Assembly (NCBI GenBank): GCA_964496415.1
Contig: CAZBZN010000001.1
Location: 9,819-73,818, forward strand
Source of the DNA: Candidatus Micrarchaeota archaeon
Lineage (GTDB): Archaea; B1Sed10-29; JAJRYS01
Reading direction: 5' to 3'
Length of the DNA: 64,000 nucleotides
Made by a program: the position numbers and the translations under genes. Shown here in pieces: positions 20,752-63,886 of the stretch (the first letter of the stretch is position 1; each line of letters begins with the position of its first letter). A model generated the notes under the pieces. The model made no database searches, was not told the DNA's origin, and saw nothing but the letters and a program-made list of their open reading frames with translations.

Positions 20752-20797
20752 CTTTTTGAAAGAGTCTTCTCAGCTTTTGCCGAGAAGCATTTCTATA

Positions 20798-21457: not shown

Positions 21458-21633
21458 TTTTTCTCCTTCTTTTTTTGTTTTTTAACCCATTTTACTTTTG
21501 CTGGCTTTCTTTTGAGTTTTAGAAGGTTTTTTTCACATTTTGATGAGCAAAAATAGTACCTTGTGCCATCTTTTAAAGCATAAATTTTTCCAGTTCCAGG
21601 GATTATTTCTTTTCCACAGAAAGAACACTTCAT
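21454..21633 (-). CDS. rpl24e: 50S ribosomal protein L24e
   Basis: Not in the ORF track (59 aa). Translation [63 protein letters not shown] overlap with adk. Confidence 0.8.
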
Positions 21634-21637
21634 TAGC

Positions 21638-21847
21638 TCACCTTACTTTTATTGGCTTTGCTTCTGTTTCAGTATCTAATAACATTAAAATGTCCCCGAT
21701 TCTTACAGGTCCTTTTACATTTCTTCTCATTATTCTACCTTTGTCTCTTCCTTCAAGGATTTTTACCATCACTTGCCAGATTTCTCCATGTACTCCTGTT
21801 TTTCCAATGATTTCAACTATTTCTGCTGGAGTTGCTTCTTCACTCAT
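21638..21847 (-). CDS. rps28e: 30S ribosomal protein S28e
   Basis: [40 protein letters not shown]. Confidence 0.85.
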
Positions 21848-22223
21848 TAGCTTTCACCTGTTTTTTCAGTTCTTCCATTTTTGTAGCTATGTCTTTTATT
21901 AAGTCTTTGGCATTTCCTGGTTCTACTATTGCTACCGCGCTTGAAGCTACTTTTATTCCAGCAGCTTCTCCGAGTTCTTTTTTACCAGGAACAAAGACGT
22001 ATGGGATTCCTTTTTCATCACATAATACTGGCAGAAAAGCAACTATTTCTGGTGGGTTGACATCTTCAGCGATTATTACTAACTTTGCTATCTCTCTTTC
22101 AACTGCTTTTGTTGTTTCGTTTATTCCTTTTCTTATTTTTCCAGAAGATCTTGCCATTTCAACTGCTTGGTATGCTTCGTCAGCTAATTCTTTTGGAACA
22201 TTTATTTTTGCAACCATTTTCAT
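21840..22223 (-). CDS. rpl7ae: 50S ribosomal protein L7Ae (K-turn binding)
   Basis: L7Ae/L30e fold. KELADEAY...[22 protein letters not shown] lies before the start. Confidence 0.9.
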
Positions 22224-22324
22224 ACCTCCTTTGTCACAGTTGCTTGCGCAACTCCTTCATTGGGTTTAAAAAAAGTAATAGTATTCTGAAATTGATAGTA
22301 TTTAAAGCTTTACACTATGTTTTG

Positions 22325-23542
22325 TCATTCCTTAAAGGTGGGTTTTTTCCTTGCTTTTTTATCAGCTGCTTCTATCATTGACCAAGTAAGGGTCACATTG
22401 TTCTTTTTTACCCCAAGATCCCAGATTAATTGTTTTATTCCCTCAGCAGAGATCCCTCTCTTCCTAAGTCCTCTGATTGTTAATAGCCGTGGGTCATCCC
22501 AGCCAGAATATTCCCCTTGTCTTATTTTTTCAGCCATCCATGAGCAGCTTAGTTTTGCTCCCTCAACATTGACTTTTCCTGTTACTATTGTTACAGGATA
22601 CTCCCATCCAAAGTGGTTGTATAAGTATTTTTGCTGTAATTCAGTGAAATCCAAGTCTCTTCCTCTTATGATATGAGTGGTTCCAAGTAAGTGGTCGTCA
22701 ATTGCTGAGTTAAAATTAAGCAACGGCCACACAACTGCTTTTTTATTTCTTGGATGGTCATGGTTTTTTACAATCCTAAAACCAGGCCAGTCTCTTAACG
22801 CAGGATTAGGGTCTTTCAAGTTTGTTTTTACTCTGAATACTGCTTCTCCTTCATCATACTCAGTGAACATCTTCTCCCAGCGCTTTAATTGTTCTTCAAC
22901 AGGAAGCTCCCTGCATGGGCATGGCTCTCCTTTCTTCTTAAGCTCTTTGAAATATTCTGGGTTGCAAGTGCATACGTAAGCTTTTCCCATTTTCAAGAGC
23001 TTTTCAGCGTACTCGTAGTAAATTTCAAGCCTGTCAGAAGCATAGATTACTTTGTCTGGTTTTATCCCAAGCCATTCAAGGTCCTCAAGCCACCACTCAT
23101 AAGCTTCTTTTAAAGGAGGCTTTACTTTTGGGTCAGTATCGTCAAATCTTAAAATGTACTTCCCGTTATATTTTCTTACGTAAAACCAGTTGAGGAGGGC
23201 TTGTCTCGCATGACCTAAATGCATTGGTCCGTTAGGATTTGGAGCCATCCTCATTATTACTTTTCCTTCTACTGCTTTTTCAAGTTCAGGAAGAGCATGT
23301 CTTTCTTCATCTTTTTTTTCTAATGCTTCTGGCCATAACTCCTTAAGTTTTTCTCTTATTTCTTCGATGCTCATTTTATTTACTTCTTCTACTACTTTCT
23401 TCACCGTAATGCCTAGTTTTTTCATGTCTTTCTTAAGCTCAGGAGCTTCTCCGAGAACACCATTAATTACAGCTCCTGCAAGTGCTTTCCCTTCATGCTG
23501 GTATGCGTTTTTTAATGCATGTTTTAGAATAAGTTCTTCCAT
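22325..23542 (-). CDS. gltX: glutamyl-tRNA synthetase-like protein: catalytic domain only, with N-terminal helical extension
   Basis: Class I motifs PNPNGPMHLGH and a KLSCS-like KMSKS equivalent. GWDDPRLLTIRGLRKRG is the GluRS/GlnRS signature. The ORF ends about 35 aa later, with no anticodon-binding beta-barrels. A 95-aa N-terminal helical domain is present. Confidence 0.8.
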   Translation of the reverse strand: MEELILKHALKNAYQHEGKALAGAVINGVLGEAPELKKDMKKLGITVKKVVEEVNKMSIEEIREKLKELWPEALEKKDEERHALPELEKAVEGKVIMRMAPNPNGPMHLGHARQALLNWFYVRKYNGKYILRFDDTDPKVKPPLKEAYEWWLEDLEWLGIKPDKVIYASDRLEIYYEYAEKLLKMGKAYVCTCNPEYFKELKKKGEPCPCRELPVEEQLKRWEKMFTEYDEGEAVFRVKTNLKDPNPALRDWPGFRIVKNHDHPRNKKAVVWPLLNFNSAIDDHLLGTTHIIRGRDLDFTELQQKYLYNHFGWEYPVTIVTGKVNVEGAKLSCSWMAEKIRQGEYSGWDDPRLLTIRGLRKRGISAEGIKQLIWDLGVKKNNVTLTWSMIEAADKKARKKPTFKE

Positions 23543-23586
23543 GACTTTATTTAGTTTGAGAGGGTATAAATTCTTGTAGGTCTTTT

Positions 23587-24390
23587 TTACTCAAAGATTA
23601 TTGAAGCATAGCCAACTACTTTAAAATAATCTCCATTTATGTCTCCGCTTGTTGAGTACTTGAGGAGTTTTGCTTTTTTTACATCTCTTTGCTTTGAAAA
23701 AATCATAGCACTTAGTATACATCCATATCCGCATATTGACATCTCTTTTTCTTCAACTAATTTATAGAAGCCTTCGTCGTCTAATTGTTCTATTTTTTTA
23801 ATGGCTTCATTGTCTTTTTGAAAAGCAGACTCCTGTGGCTCGTAGTGAGTGAAGTCAGAGGAGGCAATGATTATGTCATTTTTTTCAAGAACTTCTGCTA
23901 AAGAGCTTCCAAGTTTTTTCATTGTTTGATATGATTGATCCATCACGCATATTGGAAGTATTTTAAAGTTTTCAAAGATTACTTGTAAGAAAGGTAACTG
24001 TACTTCTATGGAGTGTTCATATTCATGAGCTATTTGGTCGATTGCAAAACCTTTTTCAGCAAGAAAATTAGCTTTTTCTTTGTCAGTTTCTATTATGCCT
24101 AAAGGAGTTTCCCAGTCTTGAGTTGATATTGAGACAAGACTTCCCAGGCCAGTGTGGTTTGGACCAATTATTACAATAGTCCTTGGATCAGTGTTTTTTA
24201 ATGCAGAGTAAGAATAAGCTGCAGTTTGCCCTGAATAAATATACCCAGCATGAGGGCTTACTGCTGCTTTTGGTTTTGCTTTTATTTCACCAGCTTTTTC
24301 TAAGAACGAGGATATCATCTCTTTTAGTTCATCTTTGTCTGCAGGGTAGAACTGTCCAGCCACAGCTGGTTTTCTAACCATTTTTGTCAC
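23587..24390 (-). CDS. AmmeMemoRadiSam system protein B (MEMO1-like)
   Basis: AVAGQFYPAD...SPHAGYIYSG...GPNH are Memo family motifs. Confidence 0.8.
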   Translation of the reverse strand: MTKMVRKPAVAGQFYPADKDELKEMISSFLEKAGEIKAKPKAAVSPHAGYIYSGQTAAYSYSALKNTDPRTIVIIGPNHTGLGSLVSISTQDWETPLGIIETDKEKANFLAEKGFAIDQIAHEYEHSIEVQLPFLQVIFENFKILPICVMDQSYQTMKKLGSSLAEVLEKNDIIIASSDFTHYEPQESAFQKDNEAIKKIEQLDDEGFYKLVEEKEMSICGYGCILSAMIFSKQRDVKKAKLLKYSTSGDINGDYFKVVGYASIIFE

Positions 24391-25031
24391 TTTATTGGTT
24401 TTGTTTCAAACTCACTTACTGGTACTTCAAATTCTTTGTCATTTTTTAAGTAGCCTCTTTCTTTTAGAACCTCTCTTGTAAGTAACCAGTAAATCAGGGC
24501 TAAAGCTTTTTTTCCTTTGTTATTAGTTGGGATTATCAAATCAATGTTTTTAGTCAAGCTGCTTGTGTCACATAAGGAAATTACAGGTATTCTTGCTTTT
24601 TTTGCTTCTTTTATTGCTTGCCTGTCAATTGGAGGGTCTGAAGTTATTATGAGCTCTGGTTCTACAAAGTTTTCTGAGTTTGGGTTGGTTAATGTTCCTG
24701 GAATAAATCTTCCAATTACTTCCATTGCTCCTATTCTTTTAGCAAATTCATGAGCAGGTTTTCTAGCATATGCTCTGTTAGCTACTACTAAGATTTTTTC
24801 AGGGTCATATTGTGCTATAAATCTTGCAGCTACTTTTATTCTTTCATTTAAAGAGTTAATGTCAAGTACGCATAATCCGTCTGTTCTTATTTTGTAAATG
24901 AATTTTCTCATTGTTCCTGACTTGAATTTTGAGCCTATATGAACTCCAGCTTCTAAGTATTTTTCAAGAGGGACTAAGGATCTTTTAACTTCTTGCTTTG
25001 AAGATTCTTCTTTCCCTTTTCTTTTTTTCAT
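24387..25031 (-). CDS. rps2: 30S ribosomal protein S2 (uS2)
   Basis: LEAGVHIGSK...ILVVANR...PVISLCDT. Confidence 0.9.
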   Translation of the reverse strand: MKKRKGKEESSKQEVKRSLVPLEKYLEAGVHIGSKFKSGTMRKFIYKIRTDGLCVLDINSLNERIKVAARFIAQYDPEKILVVANRAYARKPAHEFAKRIGAMEVIGRFIPGTLTNPNSENFVEPELIITSDPPIDRQAIKEAKKARIPVISLCDTSSLTKNIDLIIPTNNKGKKALALIYWLLTREVLKERGYLKNDKEFEVPVSEFETKPIK

Positions 25032-26220
25032 GTTTTATCACCTTTTGAATTTTCATTAGCCTTTTTATTTTTATTACTCTTTCTTTTCCTATGATCCCTA
25101 TTTTCATGTAAGGAATGTTAAGCCCTACTGCAAGGTCTGAGATGAGGTCATCCATTGTTTCTCCTGACCTATGAGATATTATTGGAGTGTACTGGTTTTC
25201 AAAAGCTTTTTTTACTACGTTAAGAGTTTGAGTTATTGTTCCCGCTTGATTTGGCTTTATTATTATAGAGTTTGCTGCTTTTAATTTTATTCCTTTTTCA
25301 AATCTTTTTTCATTTGTAGCAAATAAGTCGTCCCCGCATATTAGCCTGTCAGGAAATTTTTCAGCCAGCCATTTGAATGATTTAAAGTCATCTTCATGAA
25401 AAGGATCCTCGATGTAATAAAGGTCATATTCTTCTATTAGTTCAGCCACGTATCTTCTTTGTTGCATGGTGCTTAATTCTTTGTCCTTATAAACATATTT
25501 TTTCCCATTGTAAAAACTGCTTGCTGCGAAGTCAACTCCTATTGCTATTTCAATTTTTCTTTTTCTGCTCAGTTTTTCAGCTTCTTCATTTAGAATTTTT
25601 AATGCGATTTCGTTTGGAATTTCAGCAACCCATCCTCCTTCATAGTCAAGTTTTTTTGACCCAATTTTTTTACCTATCCTTGCATGGAGTTCTTTACTAA
25701 TCTTAAAGGCTTTTTTAATTGACGAAGTTAGGGGAATTGCAAGGAATTCTTGAATTTCTGTTGAGTTCTCAGCGTGTTTTCCTCCGCCTATCATCTTGTT
25801 AATCATTAAAGGGATTGATGGGTTAGATTCTTTTGCTAAATATTTGTATAGTTCTTTCTTTTTTGACTTAGCAGCTGCTTTTAGGCAAGCAGCAGAGATT
25901 GCAATTGCAATATTCCCGCCTATTGCTGAGAAATTATTTGTATCATCAACTTTTCTTATTATGCTGTCAATTTTTTCCTGGTCAGTGACTTCAACACCTA
26001 TGAGCTTAGGGATAAGGGTCTTTTCAGCTCTTTTTATTAACAAATCTATATCTCTTGGAAAAGCTATTGCCTCATACTTGCTTACAGAGGTTCCAGAAGG
26101 AGCTATTGCTACTGCTTTTGAATTTTTTGTTTTTACTATTGCCTTCACTGTTGGCTCGTTTTTTGAATTCCTGTCTTTTTTGATTTTAATGCTCTTTATT
26201 TTTGCCAACTTCTTCACCAA
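24985..26220 (-). CDS. eno: enolase
   Basis: SHRSGETMDD, IKPNQAGTITQTL and an N-terminal PTVKAIVKTKNSKAVAIAPSG. Its start overlaps the rpoN 3' end. Confidence 0.85.
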   Translation of the reverse strand: MVKKLAKIKSIKIKKDRNSKNEPTVKAIVKTKNSKAVAIAPSGTSVSKYEAIAFPRDIDLLIKRAEKTLIPKLIGVEVTDQEKIDSIIRKVDDTNNFSAIGGNIAIAISAACLKAAAKSKKKELYKYLAKESNPSIPLMINKMIGGGKHAENSTEIQEFLAIPLTSSIKKAFKISKELHARIGKKIGSKKLDYEGGWVAEIPNEIALKILNEEAEKLSRKRKIEIAIGVDFAASSFYNGKKYVYKDKELSTMQQRRYVAELIEEYDLYYIEDPFHEDDFKSFKWLAEKFPDRLICGDDLFATNEKRFEKGIKLKAANSIIIKPNQAGTITQTLNVVKKAFENQYTPIISHRSGETMDDLISDLAVGLNIPYMKIGIIGKERVIKIKRLMKIQKVIKHEKKKRERRIFKARS

Positions 26221-26422
26221 GAGTCTTTATTCTTTTGAACTTTATTATCTCGTCAATGTAGTCTTTGTGAGTTAAGAGCATTCTTCTGCAGCAGTACCTT
26301 TTTATTCCAAGCTCGTCCATTACTTTTCCGGGTTCTTCTCCGTTTTTCACTCTTTCAGCATATTCTTCCCAGTATTGTCCAATAGGTTTTCCACAGGAAA
26401 AACATCTTATTGGGATTATCAT
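26186..26422 (-). CDS. rpoN: DNA-directed RNA polymerase subunit N (Rpb10)
   Basis: MIIPIRCFSCGKPIG...RYCCRRML. There is an 18-aa C-terminal extension relative to the usual ~65 aa. Confidence 0.85.
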   Translation of the reverse strand: MIIPIRCFSCGKPIGQYWEEYAERVKNGEEPGKVMDELGIKRYCCRRMLLTHKDYIDEIIKFKRIKTLGEEVGKNKEH

Positions 26423-26426
26423 CTTT

Positions 26427-26858
26427 TCACCTGAATGATTTTATTGGTTTAGCTCTAGCTCCTTTTCTAAGGAACTTCTTAGGTTCTTTTCTTCTAACAT
26501 CATCAATTATCAATGACCTATCATATTCTAAGAACTTATTTTTCAAGTCCTCGCTTTCACTCCATTCAACAAGTGCTTTTCCTATAGCTGTTCTTACTGC
26601 AAATGCCTGTCCTGATACTCCTCCTCCTTTAACATTAGCTCTGATGTCAAGAGTATTAATGAAGTTGTCTCCGAGGACTTTTTTAGCAATAGTGATTGGT
26701 TCCATTATTATTTCTCTCACATGAGCTGGTTCATAAGCATCAATTGAATAGCCGTTTATCTTTATTGTTCCATGCCCTTCTCTTATTCTTACTCTAGCTA
26801 CTGCTGCCTTTTTCTTTCCTTTAGTGAACACGATTTTTTCTTTCTTTTTTGAAGTCAT
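26427..26858 (-). CDS. rps9: 30S ribosomal protein S9 (uS9)
   Basis: GGGVSGQAFAVRTAIGKAL. The C-terminus ends in R. Confidence 0.9.
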   Translation of the reverse strand: MTSKKKEKIVFTKGKKKAAVARVRIREGHGTIKINGYSIDAYEPAHVREIIMEPITIAKKVLGDNFINTLDIRANVKGGGVSGQAFAVRTAIGKALVEWSESEDLKNKFLEYDRSLIIDDVRRKEPKKFLRKGARAKPIKSFR

Positions 26859-26861
26859 TTT

Positions 26862-27275
26862 TCATCCCTTCCATCCAAGTCTTTTACAGAGTTCTTCAAT
26901 TGTTATGTATTTTTTTGCTTTTGTTTCAGGAATGATTTTTTCAGCTTTTCCAGAATACTCTTCAGGAACCCCTATGAATGCTTTAACTCTTCTCATTGCT
27001 TCCATTCCTCTTTTTGTTTTTCTTGGAACCATGCCTCTTATGGTTCTTTTTACAAACAAGTCAGGCCTTCTTGAAAGCTTAGGACTTTTTATTGGTTTTG
27101 CGATATCTCTTATTTCAAACTTTTTCTTCCACTCTTCATAAACAGATTCAGGATTGCCTGTTATTACTGCTTTTTCAGCATTAACTATTATCACAGTTTC
27201 ACCATTCAACAGTAATTTTGCTGTTTCTGAAGCAAGTCTTCCAAGCGCTGTTTTTTCAGCATCTATTATTTTCAT
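26862..27275 (-). CDS. rpl13: 50S ribosomal protein L13 (uL13)
   Basis: MKIIDAEKTALGRLAS...RTIRGMVPRKTKRG. Confidence 0.9.
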   Translation of the reverse strand: MKIIDAEKTALGRLASETAKLLLNGETVIIVNAEKAVITGNPESVYEEWKKKFEIRDIAKPIKSPKLSRRPDLFVKRTIRGMVPRKTKRGMEAMRRVKAFIGVPEEYSGKAEKIIPETKAKKYITIEELCKRLGWKG

Positions 27276-27281
27276 ATCTCC

Positions 27282-27626
27282 TCACTGAATGATTTTTAAG
27301 TTTTTCACTTCTCCCATGTTTACCAATTCTTCTAAACTAATTGCTTTTGACCCGTTTTTTTCTATTTTTTCTTTAGCTTTTTTTGAGAACTGGTAAGCAG
27401 CAATCGTTACTTTTTTACTTAGGTTGCCTTCTGAGAGCACTTTTCCAGGAACAACTACTGTTTCTTCTTCTTTAGCATATTTCTGAATTTTAAATAAGTT
27501 AACTTCAGCCCTTTTTCTTGAAGGCTTTTCAAGTTTTTCAGCTACCGCTACTAATGCTGGCTTTTTTGTTTTTTTAAGGCTAATGATAAGCTTCCTGAGG
27601 TTTTCATTCGTTGTTCCTCTTTTCAT
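27282..27626 (-). CDS. rpl18e: 50S ribosomal protein L18e
   Basis: 114 aa. NENLRKLIISLKK...AVAEKLEKPSRKRAEVNL. Confidence 0.85.
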   Translation of the reverse strand: MKRGTTNENLRKLIISLKKTKKPALVAVAEKLEKPSRKRAEVNLFKIQKYAKEEETVVVPGKVLSEGNLSKKVTIAAYQFSKKAKEKIEKNGSKAISLEELVNMGEVKNLKIIQ

Positions 27627-27661
27627 AATACCACTCAGTATTTTTAGTCGCTTGTTGCTTT

Positions 27662-27701
27662 CAGGCGATTGAGAACCACGTTAGTGGTTCGATGTCGCCT
27701 G
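27662..27701. repeat. HP element copy A (extended hairpin, L18e leader)
   Basis: caggcga-ttgagaaccacgttagtggttcgatg-tcgcctg. Outer 7-bp stem, internal loop, inner 7-bp stem gaaccac/gtggttc, GTTA loop. The outer stem differs from the other copies by compensatory changes. Confidence 0.6.
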
Positions 27702-27723
27702 CCCGCAAGCCGTATGCGGCTCT

Positions 27724-27762
27724 AGGGGATTGAGAACCACGTTAGTGGTTCGAACATCCCCT
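27724..27762. repeat. HP element copy B
   Basis: aggggattgagaaccacgttagtggttcgaacatcccct. Identical to the copies at 30277 and 63719. Confidence 0.6.
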
Positions 27763-27785
27763 GTCCGTAAACCGCACGCGGTTTA

Positions 27786-27923
27786 TGCAGGGGACGAGAT
27801 TTGAACTCGCGTGGGCACTAAGCCACAGGGCCCTCAACCCTGCCCGTTTTCCGGGAGGCCCCGCCTCTTATTACTTTTATTAACAGGAGGCAGGGGCCAC
27901 CGTCCAGGCTCCGGCACCCCTGC
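27786..27923 (-). tRNA. tRNA-Leu(GAG) with ~51-nt intron in the D-loop
   Basis: Minus strand. Acceptor GCAGGGG/CCCCTGC with A73. Anticodon arm CAGGG-TTGAGGG-CCCTG. 15-nt variable arm. T-arm GCGAG-TTCAAAT-CTCGT. It is collinear with the intron-less Leu(TAA) at 63802, apart from a GC-rich insertion between GCCTGGA and AAAACGG. Confidence 0.7.
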
Positions 27924-27990
27924 GTAGTTTTCATAGCATAGGGGTTGCGGGGAAGCTTTGCTTACCCAAGTACCCCTGCATAGTAATCCA

Positions 27991-28557
27991 TTATAACTGT
28001 TTTTCAAGCTCTTCAGCTTTTTCTTTTAATATTTCTACTGCTTTTTTAAGCAGTTCTTTTGGTTCAAGGTTTCCAAATGATTCTATTTCAAAGTCAAAGT
28101 TGTTTTCATTGGTTTTATGAACATTATATGATGCAATGCATGGTTGGAATTTAGCATGCTGTTTTCCAGTTCCCATTATTGCTGTGGCTTCAAGTCTTAG
28201 GTTTTGTTCTTCTCCTAACTTTATTATTGGTATGTTGTCATACACTGGCTTTACGTTTGATTTTGTTTTTAAGTCTTTTGAATAGACCACTGTTGGCCCT
28301 TTTGCTTCAAGGTGAAATGTGGCTTTTGATTTTGAGGTTGCTGTTTTAGGAGTTACGAGGGGGATTAGCCCAAGTCTATGAGCTATGAACTCGTCAAAAA
28401 GGTTTGAAGTGTTTTCAAAAAAGTCCACTTCATCTATTGCCATTATTGGTACTTCTGACATTAATGCCCTTCTAAGTGCGTTTGCTTTTGGGTACGAAGC
28501 TTCTTTTAAAGTGAATTTCAAGTAATTCCCATCAACTTTTAAGTTCTCTATTTTCAT
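27991..28557 (-). CDS. rpoD: DNA-directed RNA polymerase subunit D (Rpb3-like)
   Basis: 188 aa with an Rpb3/AC40 dimerisation fold. Conserved position after S11. Confidence 0.8.
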   Translation of the reverse strand: MKIENLKVDGNYLKFTLKEASYPKANALRRALMSEVPIMAIDEVDFFENTSNLFDEFIAHRLGLIPLVTPKTATSKSKATFHLEAKGPTVVYSKDLKTKSNVKPVYDNIPIIKLGEEQNLRLEATAIMGTGKQHAKFQPCIASYNVHKTNENNFDFEIESFGNLEPKELLKKAVEILKEKAEELEKQL

Positions 28558-28567
28558 TTTTCATCAC

Positions 28568-28963
28568 TTATACTCTTCTTCCTCTTTTCCCACCTTTTCT
28601 TCTTGTAGTGTCATGAGGAATAGGAGTGACGTCTTCAATTCTTCCTATTCTAAGCCCGCTTCTTGCAAGAGCTCTAATTGCTGCTTGGGCTCCTTGTCCA
28701 GGAATTTTTGACCTATGACCACCAGGAGCTCTTACATGAATGTGAACTCCTACTACTCCTTTGTTTTTAAGTTCTTCAGCTACTCTTTGAGCAGCCATCA
28801 TTGCAGCGTAAGGTGAACCTTCTTTTCTATCAGCGTCAACCACCATTCCTCCAGAGCATTTTGCCAGAGTTTCTGCTCCTGTCAAATCAGTAACAGTAAT
28901 TATAGTGTTATTCTTTGAAGCATAAATGTGTGCTATTCCCCACAGTTCTTCTTTCATTTTCAT
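28568..28963 (-). CDS. rps11: 30S ribosomal protein S11 (uS11)
   Basis: [19 protein letters not shown]...HVRAPGG. Confidence 0.9.
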
Positions 28964-29601
28964 TCACCTAAATTTTCAGCTGCTTCTTTCAGTTCTTCTT
29001 CCTCTTTTTCAGCGAGTTCCTGTTCTTTTTCCATGATTTCTTTTTCTTCTTCTTTTTCCACTTCTTTTGCAATTACTTCTAATCCTGTTTCCTGCTTTGG
29101 TTCTTCAATTGCTATTTTTAAAGGTTCCTTATACCAGCCAACAGTTTTTTCAGTTTCAAGGTCAATGATCATTGAAGGAGCAGTAGTCTTTATCCCATTG
29201 ACAGCAATATGCCCGTGAGTTATAAATTGTCTTGCTTGTTTTATTGTTCTCGCAAGACCCTTTTTCCATACGATTGTTTGAAGCCTTCTTTTTAACAAGT
29301 CTTCTGTTTTTAATGATAAAACATCATCAAGGCTGCTGTTTTCAGGAAGAATTCCATATCTTTCAAGTTTATTAAGTAAAGCTTTTTCTTTTTCTTCTCT
29401 TTCTTCAGGAGCAAGCCCAACCAGTTCTCTAGCCATGTGCCTGTACTTTCTTATTTGAGTTTTAGCTCTCCAGATTTCTTTTTTGTTTTTTAACCCATAC
29501 TCTTTCATTAGTTTCTTTTCTTCTAAGATTCTTTCTTTCTCCCAAGGATGTGATGGAGGTTCATATTTTTTCTTTAGTCTTCTCGGATCTCCCATTTTCA
29601 A
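28960..29601 (-). CDS. rps4: 30S ribosomal protein S4 (uS4) with acidic C-terminal extension
   Basis: The uS4 core followed by about 55 aa of E/K-rich tail. Confidence 0.9.
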
Positions 29602-29605
29602 TCAC

Positions 29606-30091
29606 TTATTTTTTCTTTTTAGCAGGCTGCTGTTTTTTCCTTTGCACTCCTACGGTTACTCCTGTTCTTCCCATTGTTCTTGTTCTCTGCCCTCTTACTG
29701 GCAGTCCAAACATGTGTCTTACTCCTCTGTATGAACGCATGTTCATTTCTCTTTTCTTGTCATTTTGAATGGCAAATTCAAGATCTGAACCAACTAAATG
29801 AATATCTCTTCCACTTTCAAAGTCCTTTCTTCTATTAAGCATCCATGTTGGAATGCCAAATTCTCCAGGAGAAGCTATTATCTTTTCTAATTTTTCTAAT
29901 TGTTCATCAGAAAGATAACCTATTTTTGTGGACTTTTTAACTCCTTCTGTTTTTTCAAATTCCCCAGCTATTGCTTCCGCTAACCTTTGTCCTATTCCTT
30001 TAACCATTCTTAAGGCTTTTATCATGTCGTAGTTTCCATCAACTTCGTAGCCTGAAAGCCTTAATCTTCCCTTGAATTCTGCTTCAGTCAT
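29606..30091 (-). CDS. rps13: 30S ribosomal protein S13 (uS13)
   Basis: VKGIGQRLAEAI...MRSYRGVRHMFGLPVRGQRTRT. Confidence 0.9.
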   Translation of the reverse strand: MTEAEFKGRLRLSGYEVDGNYDMIKALRMVKGIGQRLAEAIAGEFEKTEGVKKSTKIGYLSDEQLEKLEKIIASPGEFGIPTWMLNRRKDFESGRDIHLVGSDLEFAIQNDKKREMNMRSYRGVRHMFGLPVRGQRTRTMGRTGVTVGVQRKKQQPAKKKK

Positions 30092-30226
30092 TCATTCACC
30101 AGAATTTTTTATTTCCCTGTAGGTCACAGCCTTAGCGGCTCGCCAGGATTTGGTTTTTTATAACAAGTGTTATGATTTGTGAACTCTTTTGTTTATAAAC
30201 CTTATGGAAACAGCCGCACCACTGGG

Positions 30227-30275
30227 TTGAGGTCCGTAGGACCGAAGTCCTGTAAATGCAGGCTTTTTGAAGCCT
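30227..30275. repeat. E element (inverted copy), a hairpin-rich module in the S13 leader
   Basis: Reverse complement of 63638-63689, with a compensatory change gcaggctt/aagcctgc versus gcaagctt/aagcttgc. Confidence 0.5.
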
Positions 30276-30276
30276 T

Positions 30277-30315
30277 AGGGGATTGAGAACCACGTTAGTG
30301 GTTCGAACATCCCCT
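30277..30315. repeat. HP element copy C
   Basis: aggggattgagaaccacgttagtggttcgaacatcccct, 3' of the tRNA at 30340-30507. Confidence 0.6.
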
Positions 30316-30339
30316 GTCCGTAAACCGCACGCGGTTTAA

Positions 30340-30507
30340 CGCGGCGGGGGAGATTCGAACTCCCGTGCCCCGAAGGGCACCAGCTCTCCAGGCTCACCTC
30401 ACTTTGTTTAAGTTCACTTTTTAAGCAAAGTGAACTGGCGCAATACCATTGCACCCACAAGGGTGCAAACCAAATGGCTTGCCATTTGTGGTCTATGCGA
30501 CCGCCGC
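30340..30507 (-). tRNA. intron-containing pre-tRNA, most likely tRNA-Ser(GGA) with two introns (D-loop and anticodon stem)
   Basis: 168 nt, GC-rich. Acceptor GCGGCGG/CCGCCGC with G73. T-arm GGGAG-TTCGAAT-CTCCC. A class II variable arm TGCCC-TTCG-GGGCA. Joining ...GCGCCAG to CCTGGAGAGCTGG gives the stem CCAGC/GCTGG around the loop CTGGAGA. A D-stem GCA/TGC is separated by about 50 nt of hairpins. Confidence 0.45.
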
Positions 30508-30513
30508 ATGTTT

Positions 30514-31347
30514 TTATTTGATAACTTTTTCTGTTTTTATCATTTTTCCTTTTTTCGAATTTATTATTGTTTTTTTATCATAGAGAGCTGTTCCTATGGC
30601 TATAAGTTCTTGCTTTTCATTGATTATGGCTATTGGTGATCCTTTTACTATGTGTCCTTTTAGTTCTATTATTCCTGATCTGAATACTGGCGCTCCTTTT
30701 AGTATGTTTTTTTCAGCAGTTTCTTTTACTATTGCTTTTGGCATTAGTTTTACAGCGTACTCTAAGGGTTTTATTACTTCTTTTAGTAGCTTTGGATTTT
30801 CTTTTTCTAATGCTACCGCGTCTTTTAGTTTTGTTATGGTAATACATTCTTCTTCAGTGAATGGTCCTGAGCGGGTTCTTCTTAGTTGCAGCATTGTTGT
30901 TTTTGTTCCTAAGACTTTTCCAAAGTCTTCAACTAATTTCCTTATGTATGTTCCATGCTGGCAGCTTACTCTGAAAAGATAGTAGTTTTTTTTCTTTTGA
31001 ATTAGTTCAAGCTCGTATATTCGTCTTATCCTTATTTTTTTCGAAACAGCTGAAAGTTCAGGTGGTTTTTGGTAGATTTTTCCAGTGAATTCTTTAAAAA
31101 GAGTGTTTATTTTTTCTTCAGGAATTTCTTCTTCTATTTTCATTAGGCAGACGTACTCTTTGTCATGTTTTTGCAGGTATTCTATTAGTTTTCTGCCTTT
31201 TCCTACTAGTATTGGCAGGACTCCTGTTACTTCAGGGTCAAGAGTGCCGCAGTGCCCTGCTTTTTCATTAAGGATTTCAGATACCCATTGAGTGACTTGG
31301 GCACTTGTAGGCCCTCTTGGTTTGTCAATTAAAATCAGAGCATTCAT
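30514..31347 (-). CDS. cbf5: tRNA pseudouridine synthase Cbf5/TruB with PUA domain
   Basis: LILIDKPRGPTSAQV...GTLDPEVTGVLPI catalytic motif. C-terminal PUA domain. Confidence 0.85.
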   Translation of the reverse strand: MNALILIDKPRGPTSAQVTQWVSEILNEKAGHCGTLDPEVTGVLPILVGKGRKLIEYLQKHDKEYVCLMKIEEEIPEEKINTLFKEFTGKIYQKPPELSAVSKKIRIRRIYELELIQKKKNYYLFRVSCQHGTYIRKLVEDFGKVLGTKTTMLQLRRTRSGPFTEEECITITKLKDAVALEKENPKLLKEVIKPLEYAVKLMPKAIVKETAEKNILKGAPVFRSGIIELKGHIVKGSPIAIINEKQELIAIGTALYDKKTIINSKKGKMIKTEKVIK

Positions 31348-31577
31348 TTTTTCTCCTTTTTCTCTTCTTTACTTTTTTTGGTTTTTTCTCTTGGTTTTGG
31401 TATTTCTTTCGCTTTTGAACTTAAGAGTTCTATGTGTTTTATGTTTATTCTTCTTTCTTTTACTTTTTCACCTACTATTTTTACAAAGTTTTCATCAATA
31501 ACGTCAACTATTACTGCTTTTTTTCCAGCATCTGATCCTTTAACTATCACGCATTCTCTTCCTTTTTCAAGCAGCAT
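31344..31577 (-). CDS. rpl14e: 50S ribosomal protein L14e
   Basis: 77 aa. GRECVIVKGSDAGKKAVIVDVID. KOW-like. Confidence 0.8.
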   Translation of the reverse strand: MLLEKGRECVIVKGSDAGKKAVIVDVIDENFVKIVGEKVKERRINIKHIELLSSKAKEIPKPREKTKKSKEEKKEKK

Positions 31578-32106
31578 TATTTACCACCTCTTTTATTACT
31601 TTTGTTATTTCTTCAGGAGTTAGTTTTGTTGTATCTATGATCATGTCATACAATTCTTTGTCTTTCACATAATCAATTCCGTACAATTCTTTAAATTCTT
31701 TTCTTTCTATTTCTTCTCTTTCTTTTATTCTTTTTAATGCTTCTTCAACATTTATTTTTTCTCTTTTAGCCACTCTTTTTGCTCTTTCTTTTAGTTCAGC
31801 AGTAAGAAGAATCTTTAAGTCAGCGTTTTTTATTTGAAAAGCACTTAGCTTTCCGTTTATTATGACGTTTCCCTTTTCTGCTTCTTTTTTCTGCAGTTCA
31901 TCTAATTTTTGATGGAATTCTTTTAGTTTTTGTTTATCTTGTCTTATTCTCTTCCAGTGTTCTTCAACTGTTAAGCCTTTTTCTTTAGCAATTTTTTTAT
32001 GTAATTCACCAACTGTCACTAATTTTAAACCAAGTTCTTTTGCAAGCATTTTTGAAATAGTGGTGCTTCCAGCTCCAGGTTCTCCGCTTATGGTAATGAT
32101 CATCAT
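31567..32106 (-). CDS. cmk: cytidylate kinase (archaeal type)
   Basis: IITISGEPGAGSTTISKMLAKELG P-loop. About 180 aa. Confidence 0.85.
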   Translation of the reverse strand: MMIITISGEPGAGSTTISKMLAKELGLKLVTVGELHKKIAKEKGLTVEEHWKRIRQDKQKLKEFHQKLDELQKKEAEKGNVIINGKLSAFQIKNADLKILLTAELKERAKRVAKREKINVEEALKRIKEREEIERKEFKELYGIDYVKDKELYDMIIDTTKLTPEEITKVIKEVVNNAA

Positions 32107-32111
32107 GAGTT

Positions 32112-32423
32112 TTATTTTTCAACAAACTTTCTATACTTTGGTTCAACTTCTTCTATTTTCATTTCTCCTGCTTTTATTCTTGCTTTTAATCTTATCACTC
32201 TTTCAGCACAAGAATGGCATAGATTTCCAGAGTATTTTCTTCCCGGCTTTTTCTGAGTTTTTGACAGCTTTTTATCAGTGCTTACTCCGGTTAGTTTTTT
32301 CCCACAGATTTCACAGGAAGCATGAGTACTTTTTCTTCTTTTGTAGAAAGTTTTAACTTCTCCTTTAGGTGTTCTTTTCTTTATTCTTCTAAGACTTCTG
32401 CTTCTTTTTCTTGGTTCAACCAT
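32112..32423 (-). CDS. rpl34e: 50S ribosomal protein L34e
   Basis: CEICGKK...CHSCAE zinc motif within a basic protein. Confidence 0.85.
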   Translation of the reverse strand: MVEPRKRSRSLRRIKKRTPKGEVKTFYKRRKSTHASCEICGKKLTGVSTDKKLSKTQKKPGRKYSGNLCHSCAERVIRLKARIKAGEMKIEEVEPKYRKFVEK

Positions 32424-32862
32424 TATTCTTCCCCCTATCTTTTGCCTTGTAAGCTATTTCAAGTATTATCGTTGTTATTAACGAAGATAGAATGTATAAT
32501 CCAAGCCACCCGAACTTACTGTGGAAAGGTAATGGGATTTCAGCTATTACTCCAAGGCTTCCATATCTCATGCTCATGAACCCAATTATTATCAAAATTG
32601 GGATGGTGGTATACATTAATGGTTTCATGCTCATATTTGTTTGCTCTTTCATTAAATCCAATAGTTCTTTATTTATCTCCTGTAATCTTTTATTTCCTGG
32701 GTCGCCTTGCATTTTCTTTAATTCTTTTTGAAGCTCTTTTTGTCTCTTTCTTATTTCTTTTAATTTTTTCTGGTCAACGAGTCTTTTATTTGCAGCAAAA
32801 TTTATGAGTGAAATCAACACTCCTAAGGTTATTATTTCAATTCCAGCTTGAGTTATCATCAT
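32416..32862 (-). CDS. DUF106 (EMC3/YidC-like) membrane insertase homolog
   Basis: 148 aa with 3 TM helices and a K/E coiled-coil loop. The position after secY is the conserved one for the archaeal DUF106 gene. Confidence 0.65.
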   Translation of the reverse strand: MMITQAGIEIITLGVLISLINFAANKRLVDQKKLKEIRKRQKELQKELKKMQGDPGNKRLQEINKELLDLMKEQTNMSMKPLMYTTIPILIIIGFMSMRYGSLGVIAEIPLPFHSKFGWLGLYILSSLITTIILEIAYKAKDRGKNNG

Positions 32863-32863
32863 T

Positions 32864-34225
32864 TTATCCCCCTATTAATCCTTTAAGCATTGGCATTAAT
32901 TCTGCGGCTTGTTGTGCTGCTAATTCTTCATACATCCTGTATAGTATTCCTACTGTTAATAATATTCCAGTACCTGTTCCTAATGCTCCTGTTAGGTCTG
33001 CTATTACAGCAATTATTCCTACTGTAGCAGAACCAAGAACAGTTATTGCTGGGATGTATCTTTCTAATACTCTTTCTATTATTCTTGGGTCTCTTCTGAA
33101 TCCAGGCACATGCAGGCCTACTTGTTGGAGTTGTTTTGCTACGCTTTTTGAGTCCATACCACTTAGTTCTACCCAGAACTTCCCGAAGAGTATGCAGAAA
33201 ATTATCATTGCAAGAGTATAAATTAGTATGTGAAGTACCATTCCAGGGCTTGTTAGTGTGTTAATCATTTGAGTAGGAGTTGATAATGCTCCATAGGGTG
33301 CTTTTAGATAGTAAGCTATTCCACTTACTGGCTGGTTTTCTACGAAGTTTCCAAGTAGTGGTAGTCCTATTTTCTGTAAGGCAACACCCCATAATTGGAC
33401 ATTGGCAAATAATGCTGCTGTGAATATTACTGGGATGTTTGAAACGTATAAGAATTTCAAAGGCCATCTTGCTCCGAAGCCTTTTATTCTTCCAAATGTT
33501 AATGGGATTTCTATTTTCATTGATTCAGCATATACGACAAATAAGAATACTAAGATTGTGAAAATTAGTGGGAATAATGCTGTTTCAGGGATTTGTCCAT
33601 TAATTAATCCTTGAAGTAATTGTGGGACTAGCCCAACATAGGTTCCTGAGGTTGGAACCCATGATAATGCTCTCCATATTATTGTAAATGATACCCCTGC
33701 TGCTATGAATAATCCTACTCCAGAACCTATTCCGTATTTTGAAACTACTTCATCTAAGTACATTATCATTAAAGCTGCGAAAGCTAATTGCAGCATTACT
33801 AAGACTTTATTAAAACCAACTGCTGGAACGAAGCCGCTTATTACGTAGACCCCTGCTTCAAAAAAACAGAAGAATATGGCCATGAGTTTTTGAAGTGATT
33901 GATAATATGCTTTTTGTTTTGGGTCATGAACGTCTATTTTTATTATCCCTGCACCCATTAGTAATTGTAATACTATTGAACCCATTACTATTGGTCCTAT
34001 TCCAAGTGTTGCAAGAGTTCCTATTTTTGATGCTGTTACAAGTTGAAGATTTTTAAGAAAATCTGATTGCCTTGTGGCAGTCATTCCAACAGGTGTTATT
34101 ACTCCAAGAATGGCAAAAATAAGTAATGCTATTGCAGTCCATTCTAATCTTCTTTTAAGGCCTGGTTTTCTTTCAGGAGTTTTTACTTCTGGAATGAATT
34201 TCATCAAGGAATTAACAATACTCAA
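32864..34225 (-). CDS. secY: preprotein translocase SecY
   Basis: 453 aa, 10 TM, standard SecY topology. It follows L15. Confidence 0.9.
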   Translation of the reverse strand: MSIVNSLMKFIPEVKTPERKPGLKRRLEWTAIALLIFAILGVITPVGMTATRQSDFLKNLQLVTASKIGTLATLGIGPIVMGSIVLQLLMGAGIIKIDVHDPKQKAYYQSLQKLMAIFFCFFEAGVYVISGFVPAVGFNKVLVMLQLAFAALMIMYLDEVVSKYGIGSGVGLFIAAGVSFTIIWRALSWVPTSGTYVGLVPQLLQGLINGQIPETALFPLIFTILVFLFVVYAESMKIEIPLTFGRIKGFGARWPLKFLYVSNIPVIFTAALFANVQLWGVALQKIGLPLLGNFVENQPVSGIAYYLKAPYGALSTPTQMINTLTSPGMVLHILIYTLAMIIFCILFGKFWVELSGMDSKSVAKQLQQVGLHVPGFRRDPRIIERVLERYIPAITVLGSATVGIIAVIADLTGALGTGTGILLTVGILYRMYEELAAQQAAELMPMLKGLIGG

Positions 34226-34629
34226 CTTTCTTCACCTATGAGAAAGGCTTTGCCTCCTGCTTTTTCTATTTTTTCTTTAGCTTTTTCAGTAAAGTAATGT
34301 GCTTTTATTGCTAAGGGTTTTGAAATTGTTCCTGCGCCAAGAACTTTCTCATAACCATGTTTTGTGACATCAACTTCTAATGACCCTTCTTTGACTAGTT
34401 TTTCCAATTCTTTTAAGTTTATTGCTTTTGGTTTTTTCTTCAAGCTGTGAAATCCTTTTTTGTATAATCTTTCTGGCTCGTATTTTATTATATGGAGTTT
34501 GTTTCTTTGCCCTCTTTTCACAGAGCCTCTTCCCATTCTGCTTCCTTTTCCTCTTTTGTTTTTAGTATTTCCTTTACCGCAAGTTCTTGTTCCACGTTTT
34601 TTTGTTATCTTTCTTTTATGCCTTATCAT
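34222..34629 (-). CDS. rpl15: 50S ribosomal protein L15 (uL15)
   Basis: RTCGKGNTKNKRGKGSRMGRG. Confidence 0.9.
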   Translation of the reverse strand: MIRHKRKITKKRGTRTCGKGNTKNKRGKGSRMGRGSVKRGQRNKLHIIKYEPERLYKKGFHSLKKKPKAINLKELEKLVKEGSLEVDVTKHGYEKVLGAGTISKPLAIKAHYFTEKAKEKIEKAGGKAFLIGEES

Positions 34630-34650
34630 TCTTACACGCCTCTTGCATTT

Positions 34651-35109
34651 TCATATCATTCTTTCTAATAATTCGTTTATTTTTTCACCTCTGTACCCGA
34701 GGTCTCCTTTCATTGTAAACGGTCTTTTTATTGACTTGTATCCTTTTCTTGGTGGGTGAAGCCTGAAAGGTTGTTTTATTCCGACATCCTTGAATTTTAC
34801 TTTTAATGAGTACAAGTCATCTACTGTTATTCCTTTTTCTTTTAAGTATTCTGGAGTTACTTTTTTATCTCCTTCTATTCTTCCCCATTTGAACAGAAGT
34901 TTTTCAAACACATCTTTGCTTATTTCTCCAAAAGTAGCATAGTCTTTTATTTTTTGAAGCATTCCCTTGTAATATTTATTATAAGGAACTATCACACAGT
35001 TGTTTACTTTTTTAAGTTTAAGCAGTTGCATTGTTCTTTCTATTGGCTCTCTTACACCTACATTTCCTCTTATTCTTATTACTGCCATTGGTTTTACTTC
35101 CTCATTCAT
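34651..35109 (-). CDS. rpl30: 50S ribosomal protein L30 (uL30)
   Basis: MAVIRIRGNVGVREPIERT. Confidence 0.9.
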   Translation of the reverse strand: MNEEVKPMAVIRIRGNVGVREPIERTMQLLKLKKVNNCVIVPYNKYYKGMLQKIKDYATFGEISKDVFEKLLFKWGRIEGDKKVTPEYLKEKGITVDDLYSLKVKFKDVGIKQPFRLHPPRKGYKSIKRPFTMKGDLGYRGEKINELLERMI

Positions 35110-40053: not shown

Positions 40054-40343
40054 TTTTTCTGCACCTTTTCGATTACTACGAAGCTTTTAGTCTTGCTTAT
40101 TTTTTTACATTCTCCTATTTTTACCTTGTCTCCAACGTTTATTTCCATGCATTCAGGTTTGTGAGCATTAATTCTTGATTTTCTTCTTTCATATCTTTCA
40201 TACTTTGGAACAAAGTGTAAGTATTCTCTTTCAACTACTACTGTGTTTTTTGGTTTGTTACTTACCACTACTCCTTCAAGTATTATTCCCCTTACTTTTA
40301 GATTTCCGTGGATTGGACAGTTTTTGTCTTTGCATTCTTGCAT
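40050..40343 (-). CDS. rps17: 30S ribosomal protein S17 (uS17)
   Basis: [16 protein letters not shown]...VVS. Confidence 0.9.
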
Positions 40344-63511: not shown

Positions 63512-63639
63512 CGCCCCAGCCGGGATTTGAACCCGGGTCTCGGCCTCGACAGGGCCGAATCCTAGACCAATCTTCCACCTTTCTCAAGTTTTCTTTGGTG
63601 CAGCTTTCTTCTTAAGAAAGGTGCCTAGACTACCGGGGC
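63512..63639 (-). tRNA. tRNA-Asp(GTC) with ~55-nt AT-rich intron in the D-arm
   Basis: Minus strand. Acceptor GCCCCGG/CTGGGGC with G73. Anticodon arm CGGCC-CTGTCGA-GGCCG. T-arm CCGGG-TTCAAAT-CCCGG. The D region is interrupted by gcacctttcttaagaagaaagctgcaccaaagaaaacttgagaaaggtggaagattg, flanked by GTCTAG direct repeats. Confidence 0.65.
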
Positions 63640-63689
63640 AAGCTTCAAAAAGCTTGCATTTACAGGACTTCGGTCCTAACGGACCTCAA
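63638..63689. repeat. E element (direct copy), a hairpin-rich module at the tRNA-Asp 5' flank
   Basis: gcaagcttcaaaaagcttgc plus aggacttcggtcct, with an alternative pairing ggtcctaacggacc. It is the reverse complement of 30227-30275. Confidence 0.5.
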
Positions 63690-63718
63690 TCCAGTATCCG
63701 TGAGCCGTATGAGGCTCT

Positions 63719-63757
63719 AGGGGATTGAGAACCACGTTAGTGGTTCGAACATCCCCT
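63719..63757. repeat. HP element copy D
   Basis: aggggattgagaaccacgttagtggttcgaacatcccct, 3' of tRNA-Leu(TAA) after two GC hairpins. Confidence 0.6.
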
Positions 63758-63801
63758 GTCTGCCAGCTGCACGCAGCTGTCCGCAAGCCGCGCGCGGCTT
63801 A

Positions 63802-63886
63802 TGCAGGGGAAGGGATTTGAACCCTCGTAGGCACTAAGCCACAGGATCTTAAGTCCTGCCCGTTTTCCAGGCTCCGGCACCCCTGC
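63802..63886 (-). tRNA. tRNA-Leu(TAA), intron-less
   Basis: Minus strand: GCAGGGG-TG-CCGG-AGCCTGGAAAA-ACGG-G-CAGGA-CTTAAGA-TCCTG-TGGCTTAGTGCCTAC-GAGGG-TTCAAAT-CCCTT-CCCCTGC-A. Class II cloverleaf. Confidence 0.8.

Follow-up and report, generated by a model that had tools for sequence, protein, structure and literature searches.

Why should the same G+C-rich hairpin stand in opposite orientations beside two tRNA genes of one archaeal genome fragment, and does it act there as an RNA switch? The question is raised by a stretch of 64,000 nucleotides (nt) from a Candidatus Micrarchaeota archaeon (contig CAZBZN010000001.1, positions 9,819 to 73,818), referred to below as the window, in which a hairpin element, E, followed by a smaller hairpin, H2, is found near 30 kilobases (kb) next to a tRNA-Ser gene and again, inverted, near 63.6 kb next to a tRNA-Asp gene. 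We find that E belongs, as one component among several, to a family of GC-rich hairpin modules that is specific to the species and is arranged in shuffled, fast-changing arrays beside tRNA genes. Comparison of its copies supports a nested fold and speaks against a switch. As to the role of the arrays, we tentatively favour the view that they are recombining structured spacers that would be transcribed together with the tRNAs.

An inverted hairpin module beside two tRNA genes

The preliminary description of the window had pointed to a segment near 30 kb that is the reverse complement of one near 63.6 kb, and this is indeed the case for positions 30220-30276 and 63638-63696. A repeat search of the window returned inverted-repeat arms at 30237-30273 and 63642-63678 (37 nt, 97% complementary), while other inverted repeats of similar length are AT-rich, with 70-85% matches. 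The 14-mer AGGACTTCGGTCCT from the core of E occurs exactly twice, on opposite strands, against a chance expectation of 0.12. The two loci are composed as follows:

30220..30258, plus strand: E copy 1, nested hairpin AC-U-GGGUU-GA-[GGUCC GUA GGACC]-GA-AGUCC-U-GU, then linker AAAUG
30259..30275, plus strand: H2 of E copy 1, CAGGCTT-TTTG-AAGCCT, with a stem of 6 base pairs (bp)
30340..30507, minus strand: tRNA-Ser(GGA), two non-canonical introns, cloverleaf read by hand
63512..63639, minus strand: tRNA-Asp(GUC), D-loop intron of ~53 nt
63638..63657, minus strand: H2 of E copy 2, GCAAGCTT-TTTG-AAGCTTGC, 3′ arm flush with the 5′ end of tRNA-Asp (2-nt overlap)
63658..63696, minus strand: E copy 2, same nested hairpin as copy 1 with inner loop GUUA

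The two E units are ~93% alike over 56 nt. Their full-unit alignment differs in 4 of 56 columns, which hold an inner-loop indel of 1 nt (GTA in one copy, GTTA in the other), one G/A difference in the outer helix and a paired A-T to G-C change in H2. This paired change had been noticed before as a compensatory change in an 8-bp stem; it stands, as one of several compensated pairs, but the stem at 30 kb does not have the length assigned to it. The sequence there reads gcaggctt/aagcctTA and not, as had been misread, aagcctGC, so that the stem is 6 bp long. At the other locus the 8-bp version of the hairpin (63638-63657) overlaps nucleotides 1-2 of tRNA-Asp, in agreement with the earlier statement that it meets the tRNA 5′ end. 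That end, at 63639, was placed by ARAGORN after removal of the intron; because of the ~53-nt D-loop intron, both ARAGORN and Rfam miss the intact gene. Both tRNA-Asp and tRNA-Ser are complete genes. Copy 1 of E lies antisense in the 3′ flank of tRNA-Ser, and copy 2 is tRNA-sense and makes up the 5′ leader of tRNA-Asp; the two copies are not, therefore, simply the leaders of two tRNAs.

That E is inverted relative to a second hairpin element, HP, can also be upheld. A plus-strand HP adjoins each of the window E copies, and since all four HP copies of the window (GGGGATTGAGAACCACGTTAGTGGTTCGAACATCCCC) are on the plus strand, it is E that is truly inverted. Over all loci, E with its H2 has the same orientation as HP at five and is flipped at one (63.6 kb), as befits a module oriented independently of HP. 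This orientation is not an assembly artefact. Both E loci are spanned in the same orientation by the independent European Nucleotide Archive (ENA) assembly ERZ27248007, whose contig L025 matches window positions 20514-34767 at 99.99% and whose contig L032 covers 59.4-65.0 kb, and two Logan assemblies continue from E-H2 into tRNA-Asp. Target-site duplications, suggested earlier as something to look for, were not seen on inspection of the sequences bordering the flipped unit (GGCTCACGGAT / unit / GCCCCGGTAG), nor were terminal inverted repeats.

Covariation and the switch model

Seven copies of E were aligned and tested for covariation against 500 shuffles and slid controls. In the nested fold, 100% of the cells are paired in the E helices and 88% in H2. 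Seven pairs are compensated on both sides, a result equalled by none of the 500 shuffles, and the slid controls all collapse. Covariation among the aligned sequences thus supports a fold in which an outer helix is followed by a tandem G.A loop and a variable inner hairpin. HP is nearly invariant, with 95% of its cells paired and one compensated pair.

The preliminary description had proposed that two mutually exclusive helices, GGUCC/GGACC and AGGAC/GUCCU, form a small RNA switch of the terminator/antiterminator type. Both pairings are possible in the two window copies. However, the alternative helix (AGGAC-CGAA-GUCCU, or aggac-UUCG-gtcct on the other strand) is present only where the inner hairpin is GGUCC/GGACC, as it is in these two. 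Over the seven copies it is paired in 70% of cells, shows no compensated pair and breaks at four of its five positions. One E allele (on contigs L007 and L035) dispenses with the inner hairpin and reads GGACU-GAA-AGUCC only. With an alternative helix that is not conserved and an allele that cannot form the inner hairpin, a conserved two-state switch is not supported. On the tRNA-sense strand, neither E helix is followed by a run of four or more T that could provide a U-tract, the sole T5 being inside the H2 loop, and the nested fold explains all copies. As far as these alignments go, the comparative data already contradict the switch model, which we regard as barely credible.

A family of hairpin modules

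Read on the window plus strand, which is the sense of HP, the arrays follow a simple grammar: a big hairpin, a UG-linker and a small hairpin, repeated. For E, the consensus is AC-U-GGAYU-GA-[variable hairpin]-GA-AGUCC-U-GU, then AAAUG, then H2 (..RGCUU-UUUG-AAGCY..). For HP it is GGGGAU(U)-GA-[variable hairpin]-GA(AC)-AUCCCC, then UGYCYG, then a small hairpin named S, AAACCG-CACG-CGGUUU, which has the compensated variants CAGCUG/CAGCUG and AAGCCG/CGGCUU. E and HP therefore have a common design of stem, GA, variable inner hairpin, GA and stem, with a linker and a small hairpin after it. The frame of this design, written as the regular expression GGRYTGA..GA..RTCC, matches copies of E and HP only (five in the window, where chance would give 0.26, a further 13 on contigs of the same organism and none in relatives), so that E and HP may be taken as sister versions of one design. 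A bridging copy links both types: at L005 44-96, an E is followed by UACCCG and an S hairpin.

The other members of the family and the tRNA genes beside them in the window are:

27663..27700, plus strand: diverged HP, GGCGAU.../...GUCGCC, lower stem compensated, one U.G pair
27707..27722, strand unassigned: S hairpin, AAGCCG-TATG-CGGCTC
27724..27762, plus strand: HP in the 3′ flank of tRNA-Leu(GAG)
27768..27785, strand unassigned: S hairpin, TAAACCG-CACG-CGGTTTA, starting 1 nt past the tRNA-Leu(GAG) discriminator base
27786..27923, minus strand: tRNA-Leu(GAG), D-loop intron, cloverleaf read by hand
30277..30315, plus strand: HP beside E copy 1, AGGGGAUUGA-[GAACCAC GUUA GUGGUUC]-GAACAUCCCCU
30321..30338, strand unassigned: S hairpin, TAAACCG-CACG-CGGTTTA, starting 1-2 nt past the tRNA-Ser discriminator base
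63702..63717, strand unassigned: S hairpin between flipped E and HP, GAGCCG-TATG-AGGCTC
63719..63757, plus strand: HP near E copy 2, with the small S hairpin in between
63764..63800, strand unassigned: two S hairpins, CAGCTG-CACG-CAGCTG and AAGCCG-CGCG-CGGCTT, the second starting 1 nt past the tRNA-Leu(UAA) discriminator base
63802..63886, minus strand: tRNA-Leu(UAA)

The S hairpin GAGCCGTATG(A/C)GGCTC, noticed earlier as shared between two loci, is found at 63702-63717 and 27707-27722. The order E-H2-HP-S-H2, which we regard as canonical, occurs at three loci, and the remaining arrays are shortened or extended mosaics with conserved linkers. An array has 2-9 hairpins and is 80-300 nt long.

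A different hairpin type, GAGGGGGAAACC-NNNN-GGUGUCCCCUC, was also observed. Three tandem copies of it, one with a UUCG loop, stand directly 5′ of tRNA-Glu (L035 2826-2925, equal to L005 5459-5560), and a similar hairpin lies inside the T-loop intron of tRNA-Gln (L007 ~1936-1955).

Further copies and their origin

The possibility that only two copies of E exist can be set aside, as other contigs of the same organism carry at least six E copies and at least 11 HP-type copies. They were reached through a 21-mer from the HP core, which identifies three real loci in Joint Genome Institute (JGI) metagenomes (L005-L007) and one chance match; these loci have the same module kinds beside other tRNAs. 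The core gave only chance matches in viral contigs elsewhere in public scans, and the E 21-mer GGACCGAAGTCCTGTAAATGC has no exact match in IMG/VR, GTDB genomes or JGI metagenomes. For TrkH of L005, a 100% identical protein is encoded on L035, a contig of ERZ27248007, the assembly that also covers the window, and this protein recurs in the same Logan run and JGI sample; after it, the closest homologue has only 56% identity. Identical TrkH in the same ENA, Logan and JGI samples indicates that L005-L007 are from the same organism as the window. By this sequence evidence, all known copies belong to one species-level population. Rfam searches at gathering and permissive thresholds gave tRNA matches only and none for E, HP, H2 or S, and BLAST against plasmids and phages gave only chance matches of 30 nt.

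Arrays adjoin tRNA genes

Every array adjoins a tRNA. About 40 modules were seen, all in tRNA flanks, and none in other intergenic regions of the ~90 kb read; within the window, non-coding DNA is GC-rich at the three tRNA loci and nowhere else. Of the arrays, seven follow the 3′ end of a tRNA (Leu-GAG, Ser, Leu-UAA, Val, Pro, Ile and one more); these share a single orientation, and in each the first hairpin begins 1-2 nt beyond the discriminator base. Two module groups, of the opposite orientation, lie 5′ of a tRNA and are both flush at position -1: E-H2 before tRNA-Asp, and an HP variant with an S hairpin before tRNA-Gln. On its other side an array borders either the tRNA that comes next or the AT-rich promoter of the adjacent gene. 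It can also be observed that the modules on either side face the tRNA, since the sole two groups on the tRNA strand are those lying 5′ of tRNAs (arrays at window 27663-27785, 30220-30338 and 63702-63800, and on L005, L006 and L035).

The tRNA genes of the window are all on the minus strand. The 5′ end of tRNA-Ser is 6 nt past the Cbf5 stop codon, tRNA-Val begins directly past a stop codon, and tRNA-Glu and tRNA-Asp are each separated from an upstream tRNA by an array alone. Since several tRNAs thus have no room for a promoter of their own, the arrays would have to be transcribed in the tRNA sense, and we infer from this gene arrangement that they are co-transcribed with the tRNAs. The tRNA-sense strand of the arrays has no terminating T-runs. 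No complementarity between leader and trailer was found around any tRNA. If both are transcribed on the tRNA strand, the sense and antisense copies of E could pair in trans, the duplex of the tRNA-Asp leader with the tRNA-Ser trailer having -95 kcal/mol; we know of no role for such a pairing.

Several of the tRNA genes (window 30340-30507, 63512-63639 and 27786-27923, L007 1874-2036 and L029 11411-11606) have introns that are non-canonical or number more than one, placed in the D-loop, the T-loop and the anticodon stem; the tRNA-Ser of the relative L029 has three. ARAGORN and gathering-threshold Rfam miss or mis-call several tRNAs because of these odd introns. Both tRNA-Leu genes of the window have a structured leader of ~55 nt in common (27924-27979 and 63887-63940, 89% identity). 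The one at 27.9 kb opens with GCAGGGGT, which duplicates the 5′ acceptor sequence of its tRNA, and the one at 63.9 kb is the entire spacer from the upstream tRNA to tRNA-Leu(UAA).

Strain variation and recombination

Contigs L005 (Ga0190314) and L035 (ERZ27248007) represent two strains that differ in 52 columns over 5.76 kb. As many as 49 of these are in arrays; elsewhere the strains are 99.9% identical, with just three differences in the remaining ~4.9 kb. A single replacement tract in the Val-Glu spacer (L035 2751-2804 versus L005 5579-5626) accounts for 43 columns. One strain has there an E without inner hairpin, the H2 allele UAAAC/GUUUG and an extra S hairpin, and the other has an E with the inner hairpin AGGCC-GAA-GGCCU, the H2 allele CAGGC/GCCU and no S hairpin. 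Each strain's H2 allele recurs elsewhere, CAGGC/GCCU at 30 kb of the window and UAAAC/GUUUG at L005 134-151, and from these sequences the allele exchange looks like gene conversion. Four further columns come from the loop of a perfect hairpin, cleanly inverted from GCA to TGC, in GGGGACACC-GCA-GGTGTCCCC (L035 8353-8373 versus L005 ~1-35). The indels between the two strains resemble local duplication or module replacement. To judge from these comparisons, ectopic recombination, indels and small inversions are concentrated in the arrays as hot spots, and this would offer a ready mechanism for the flipped E+H2.

Possible roles of the arrays

We tentatively favour the view that the arrays are recombining structured-spacer modules, specific to this lineage, that form mosaics in the spacers flanking tRNA genes and are transcribed with the tRNAs. 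In such a joint transcript, RNase P and RNase Z would release the tRNA, and the flanking RNA would keep a stable hairpin at its new end; as the hairpins are flush with the RNase Z and RNase P sites, the flanking fragments would end in a hairpin. A hairpin flush at an RNA end is a geometry known to shield RNA from exonucleases, as with bacterial 5′-terminal stem-loops and with 3′ ends stabilised by repetitive extragenic palindromes (REPs). The hairpins might also prevent any pairing between the flanks and the acceptor stem. Such a role would require a stable hairpin and no particular strand, so that the inversion of E+H2 at 63.6 kb would be tolerated; the inversion itself would be a by-product of recombination among palindromic copies.

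Several observations weigh against this view. A 3′ array was seen at 7 of 15 tRNA genes, or only about half, and the other eight have none. Two relatives, L027 and L029 (~60% protein identity), keep the syntenic, intron-rich tRNA-Ser and have no modules, and the arrays are the fastest-changing DNA between strains; patchy presence, absence in relatives and fast change argue, at the level of sequence, for weak or no constraint. In its flipped state H2 brings a run of T5 onto the tRNA-sense strand, 8 nt ahead of tRNA-Asp. In addition, the RNA-like motifs of E and HP are, at most loci, on the strand antisense to the tRNAs: the tandem G.A loops, the apical C-(G..A)-G loops, and the G.U pairs that result from one-sided stem changes, nine of nine such changes giving G.U on that strand while about three variants favour the other. 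This bias is not predicted by a simple tRNA-sense RNA role.

Much of the same evidence suits the main rival, in which the modules are recombinogenic palindromes, selfish or neutral, with no function of their own, comparable to REPs and bacterial interspersed mosaic elements (BIMEs) or to mitochondrial GC clusters, which spread and are shuffled by gene conversion, template switching or some enzyme and which survive in tRNA flanks as the only tolerated non-coding space of a compact genome. We consider this possible but on the whole unlikely. Besides species specificity and the arrays' restriction to about half of the tRNAs, it would account for the extreme strain variation (whole-module swaps, indels and the loop flip), for identical H2 alleles at different loci, for hairpins nested in the loops of other hairpins and for the inversion of one E and one HP-type copy; G+C-rich stem-loops, clustering and a link to recombination are general traits of REPs and BIMEs (PMC3184786). 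It sits less well with an orientation relative to the tRNA that is almost fixed (seven of seven on the 3′ side), with a junction exact to 1-2 nt, unlike that of random insertion, and with the confinement of copies to tRNA flanks in ~90 kb. Nor do the open reading frames (ORFs) scanned encode a transposase, integrase or reverse transcriptase domain, and the flipped unit, on inspection, has no boundaries of the kind that a transposon leaves, either as terminal inverted repeats or as target-site duplications.

The strand bias of E and HP keeps alive a reading in which the functional strand is that of HP, antisense to the tRNA. The array would be either a convergent small RNA gene facing the tRNA, or a block in which stray divergent transcripts from the AT-rich promoter of the neighbouring gene are folded and ended at T5 loops before they enter the tRNA gene. 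In this direction every H2 has a T5, the S hairpins end in UUUA, five of seven arrays have an AT-rich, TATA-like stretch 5-25 nt upstream, and the canonical order recurs at three loci. Yet over whole arrays there is no strand bias, neither in G.U pairs (33 versus 31) nor in folding energies, and at least three stem variants favour the other strand. A promoter on that side is missing from the Val to Glu and Leu to Asp arrays, and W27 and W30 lie within a ribosomal-protein operon that runs in one direction. The tRNA strand carries E at 63.6 kb as well as the L007 1819 variant of HP, and no Rfam family matches. This reading is, in our estimate, improbable. We would give similarly little weight to the broader proposal that E and HP are an undescribed, strand-specific structured class aimed at tRNA gene ends, either an archaeal small-RNA or insulator system or a mobile hairpin. 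Its frame is GGAUUGA-[variable hairpin]-GAAAUCC, built around tandem G.A; as an insulator the class could keep antisense transcription out of tRNA genes, and as a mobile hairpin targeting tRNA boundaries it may, by landing inside a tRNA, have seeded the non-canonical introns of this lineage.

Finally, E-H2 could be a portable promoter cassette, with UGUAAAUG as a weak TATA element ~20-25 nt upstream of tRNA-Asp and at the same spacing before HP, which the flip at 63.6 kb would have re-aimed at tRNA-Asp. The distance from GTAAAT to the first base of tRNA-Asp is 24 nt, equal to that to the first base of HP at other loci, GTAAAAT lies 19-23 nt upstream of three other tRNAs, and the T5 run of H2 would halt read-through from tRNA-Leu. 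Against this, TGTAAATG is a poor TATA box and the real promoters of this genome read TTTATAAA. In sister units the linker is GC-rich at this position, where it reads TACCCG or TGTCCG; the A/T run is therefore not conserved, and a promoter role for it is very unlikely. The compensated, transcribed-looking E hairpin upstream would be superfluous, and as an RNase P subunit is present, leaderless transcription of tRNAs is not required.

Host genome and gene context

The window is archaeal and has a GC content of 36%. It contains the gene cluster L34e-CMK-L14e-Cbf5-[tRNA-Ser]-S13-S4-S11-RpoD-[tRNA-Leu]-L18e-L13-S9-RpoN-enolase, with rpoH-rpoB further on. The nearest Cbf5 among 5.8 billion proteins is 62% identical, and the named relatives are Micrarchaeota/DPANN; a protein-guided genome scan with Cbf5 retrieved bacterial TruB only. 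Adjacent genes for RtcB and archease (48311-50174), as well as ArcTGT (3811-5499) and the RNase P protein p29 (40276-40611), were observed in the window. Their presence indicates that the toolkit for tRNA splicing and processing is intact despite the small genome, and with p29 encoded, 5′ leaders can be removed. Domain scans of the ORFs of the window, L025, L032 and L035 revealed no transposase, integrase or reverse transcriptase and no RAYT (REP-associated tyrosine transposase, IS200/IS605-like), and Pfam scans of the hypothetical proteins beside arrays returned nothing relevant. The 5′ untranslated region of S13 (window ~30105-30140, minus strand) holds GGCGAGCCGCUAAGGCUGUGACCUACAGGG, a motif recognisably kept in the relative L029 (11686-11722), whose Cbf5 identity is 61%; on this conservation it may be a ribosomal-protein operon leader.

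The ultra-small genomes of DPANN archaea are thought to be repeat-poor. Here, recombining hairpin modules confined to tRNA flanks form a family that differs even among near-identical strains and that the nearest sequenced relatives lack. If functional, they would represent an unstudied layer in the handling of pre-tRNA and operon transcripts in archaea with operon-embedded, intron-rich tRNAs; if selfish, they would be to archaea what BIMEs are to bacteria and GC clusters to mitochondria. There is also a practical side, as the arrays fragment short-read assemblies and inverted copies could cause mis-joins in metagenome-assembled genomes. Public short-read contigs that end inside arrays are L001 (starting at 30273), L026 (ending at 30351), L033 and L034 (starting in E-H2 near 63655), and the ends of L005 and L007.

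Comparison with known systems

A number of known elements were considered and rejected. A miniature inverted-repeat transposable element would have terminal inverted repeats and a target-site duplication, which are missing at the flipped E+H2. The kink-turn bound by L7Ae shares the tandem GA/GA, but on inspection the bulged side has only 0-1 nt and the opposite strand 0-2 extra nt. Inspection likewise showed that the defining motifs of loop E, H/ACA and C/D box RNAs, a T-arm mimic, a degenerate tRNA, a CRISPR repeat, an integrase att site and an origin-recognition box are not in the sequences. The bulge-helix-bulge (BHB) processing stems of archaeal rRNAs, tRNA introns and split tRNAs invite comparison, since they too are GC-rich helices at the borders of stable-RNA genes, and the present archaeon has many non-canonical tRNA introns and encodes RtcB and archease. 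However, a BHB motif or split-tRNA leader is not seen in any array fold: there are no staggered 3-nt bulges 4 bp apart, and the internal loops are opposed (3x4 or 2x2).

Hairpin-associated small inversions, which flip-flop between inverted repeats, have been described in chloroplast non-coding DNA. The GCA to TGC loop flip between strains is of this kind, as is, on a larger scale, the 59-nt inversion of E+H2, except that no obvious inverted repeats bracket the latter. The GC clusters of yeast mitochondria and the double-hairpin elements of Allomyces also invade coding and rRNA regions. The palindromic repeats of algal mitochondrial genomes (PMC4524435) are of the same kind. The modules resemble the mitochondrial GC clusters in being GC-rich hairpins in the intergenic and tRNA-flanking spacers of an AT-rich compact genome, in presence/absence polymorphism between close strains, in marking recombination hot spots and in having both orientations. 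They differ in residing in a free cellular archaeal genome, those elements being organellar, and there is no sequence relationship.

REPs occur in hundreds of copies dispersed genome-wide, are associated with RAYT and have a conserved tetranucleotide head. Together with BIMEs, they are short G+C-rich imperfect palindromes outside genes that form clusters of modules in either orientation, are linked to recombination and have been proposed to act as hairpins at transcript ends (PMC3184786). The modules described here are also extragenic G+C-rich imperfect palindromes in mosaic clusters with linkers, occur in both orientations and recombine. Unlike the elements of Enterobacteria and Pseudomonas, they have an archaeal host, no similarity to REP sequences and a nested design with a tandem G.A loop, and neither a GTAG-type head nor a RAYT gene was seen in the ~90 kb read. 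The copies seen are solely in tRNA flanks, with an orientation that is nearly fixed and a junction exact to 1-2 nt.

As to protective stem-loops, the 5′ hairpin of E. coli ompA and REP-stabilised 3′ ends are well-known cases, and in archaea the threat to 5′ ends comes from 5′-3′ exonucleases of the RNase J type. A hairpin within ~2 nt of the predicted RNase Z or RNase P end, as found here, has the geometry that such protection requires, whereas many tRNAs of the same genome lack arrays and the arrays, at their full length, far exceed what protection would need. The closest known kinds are thus REP/BIME clusters and organellar GC-rich palindromes in behaviour, and protective terminal stem-loops in proposed function.

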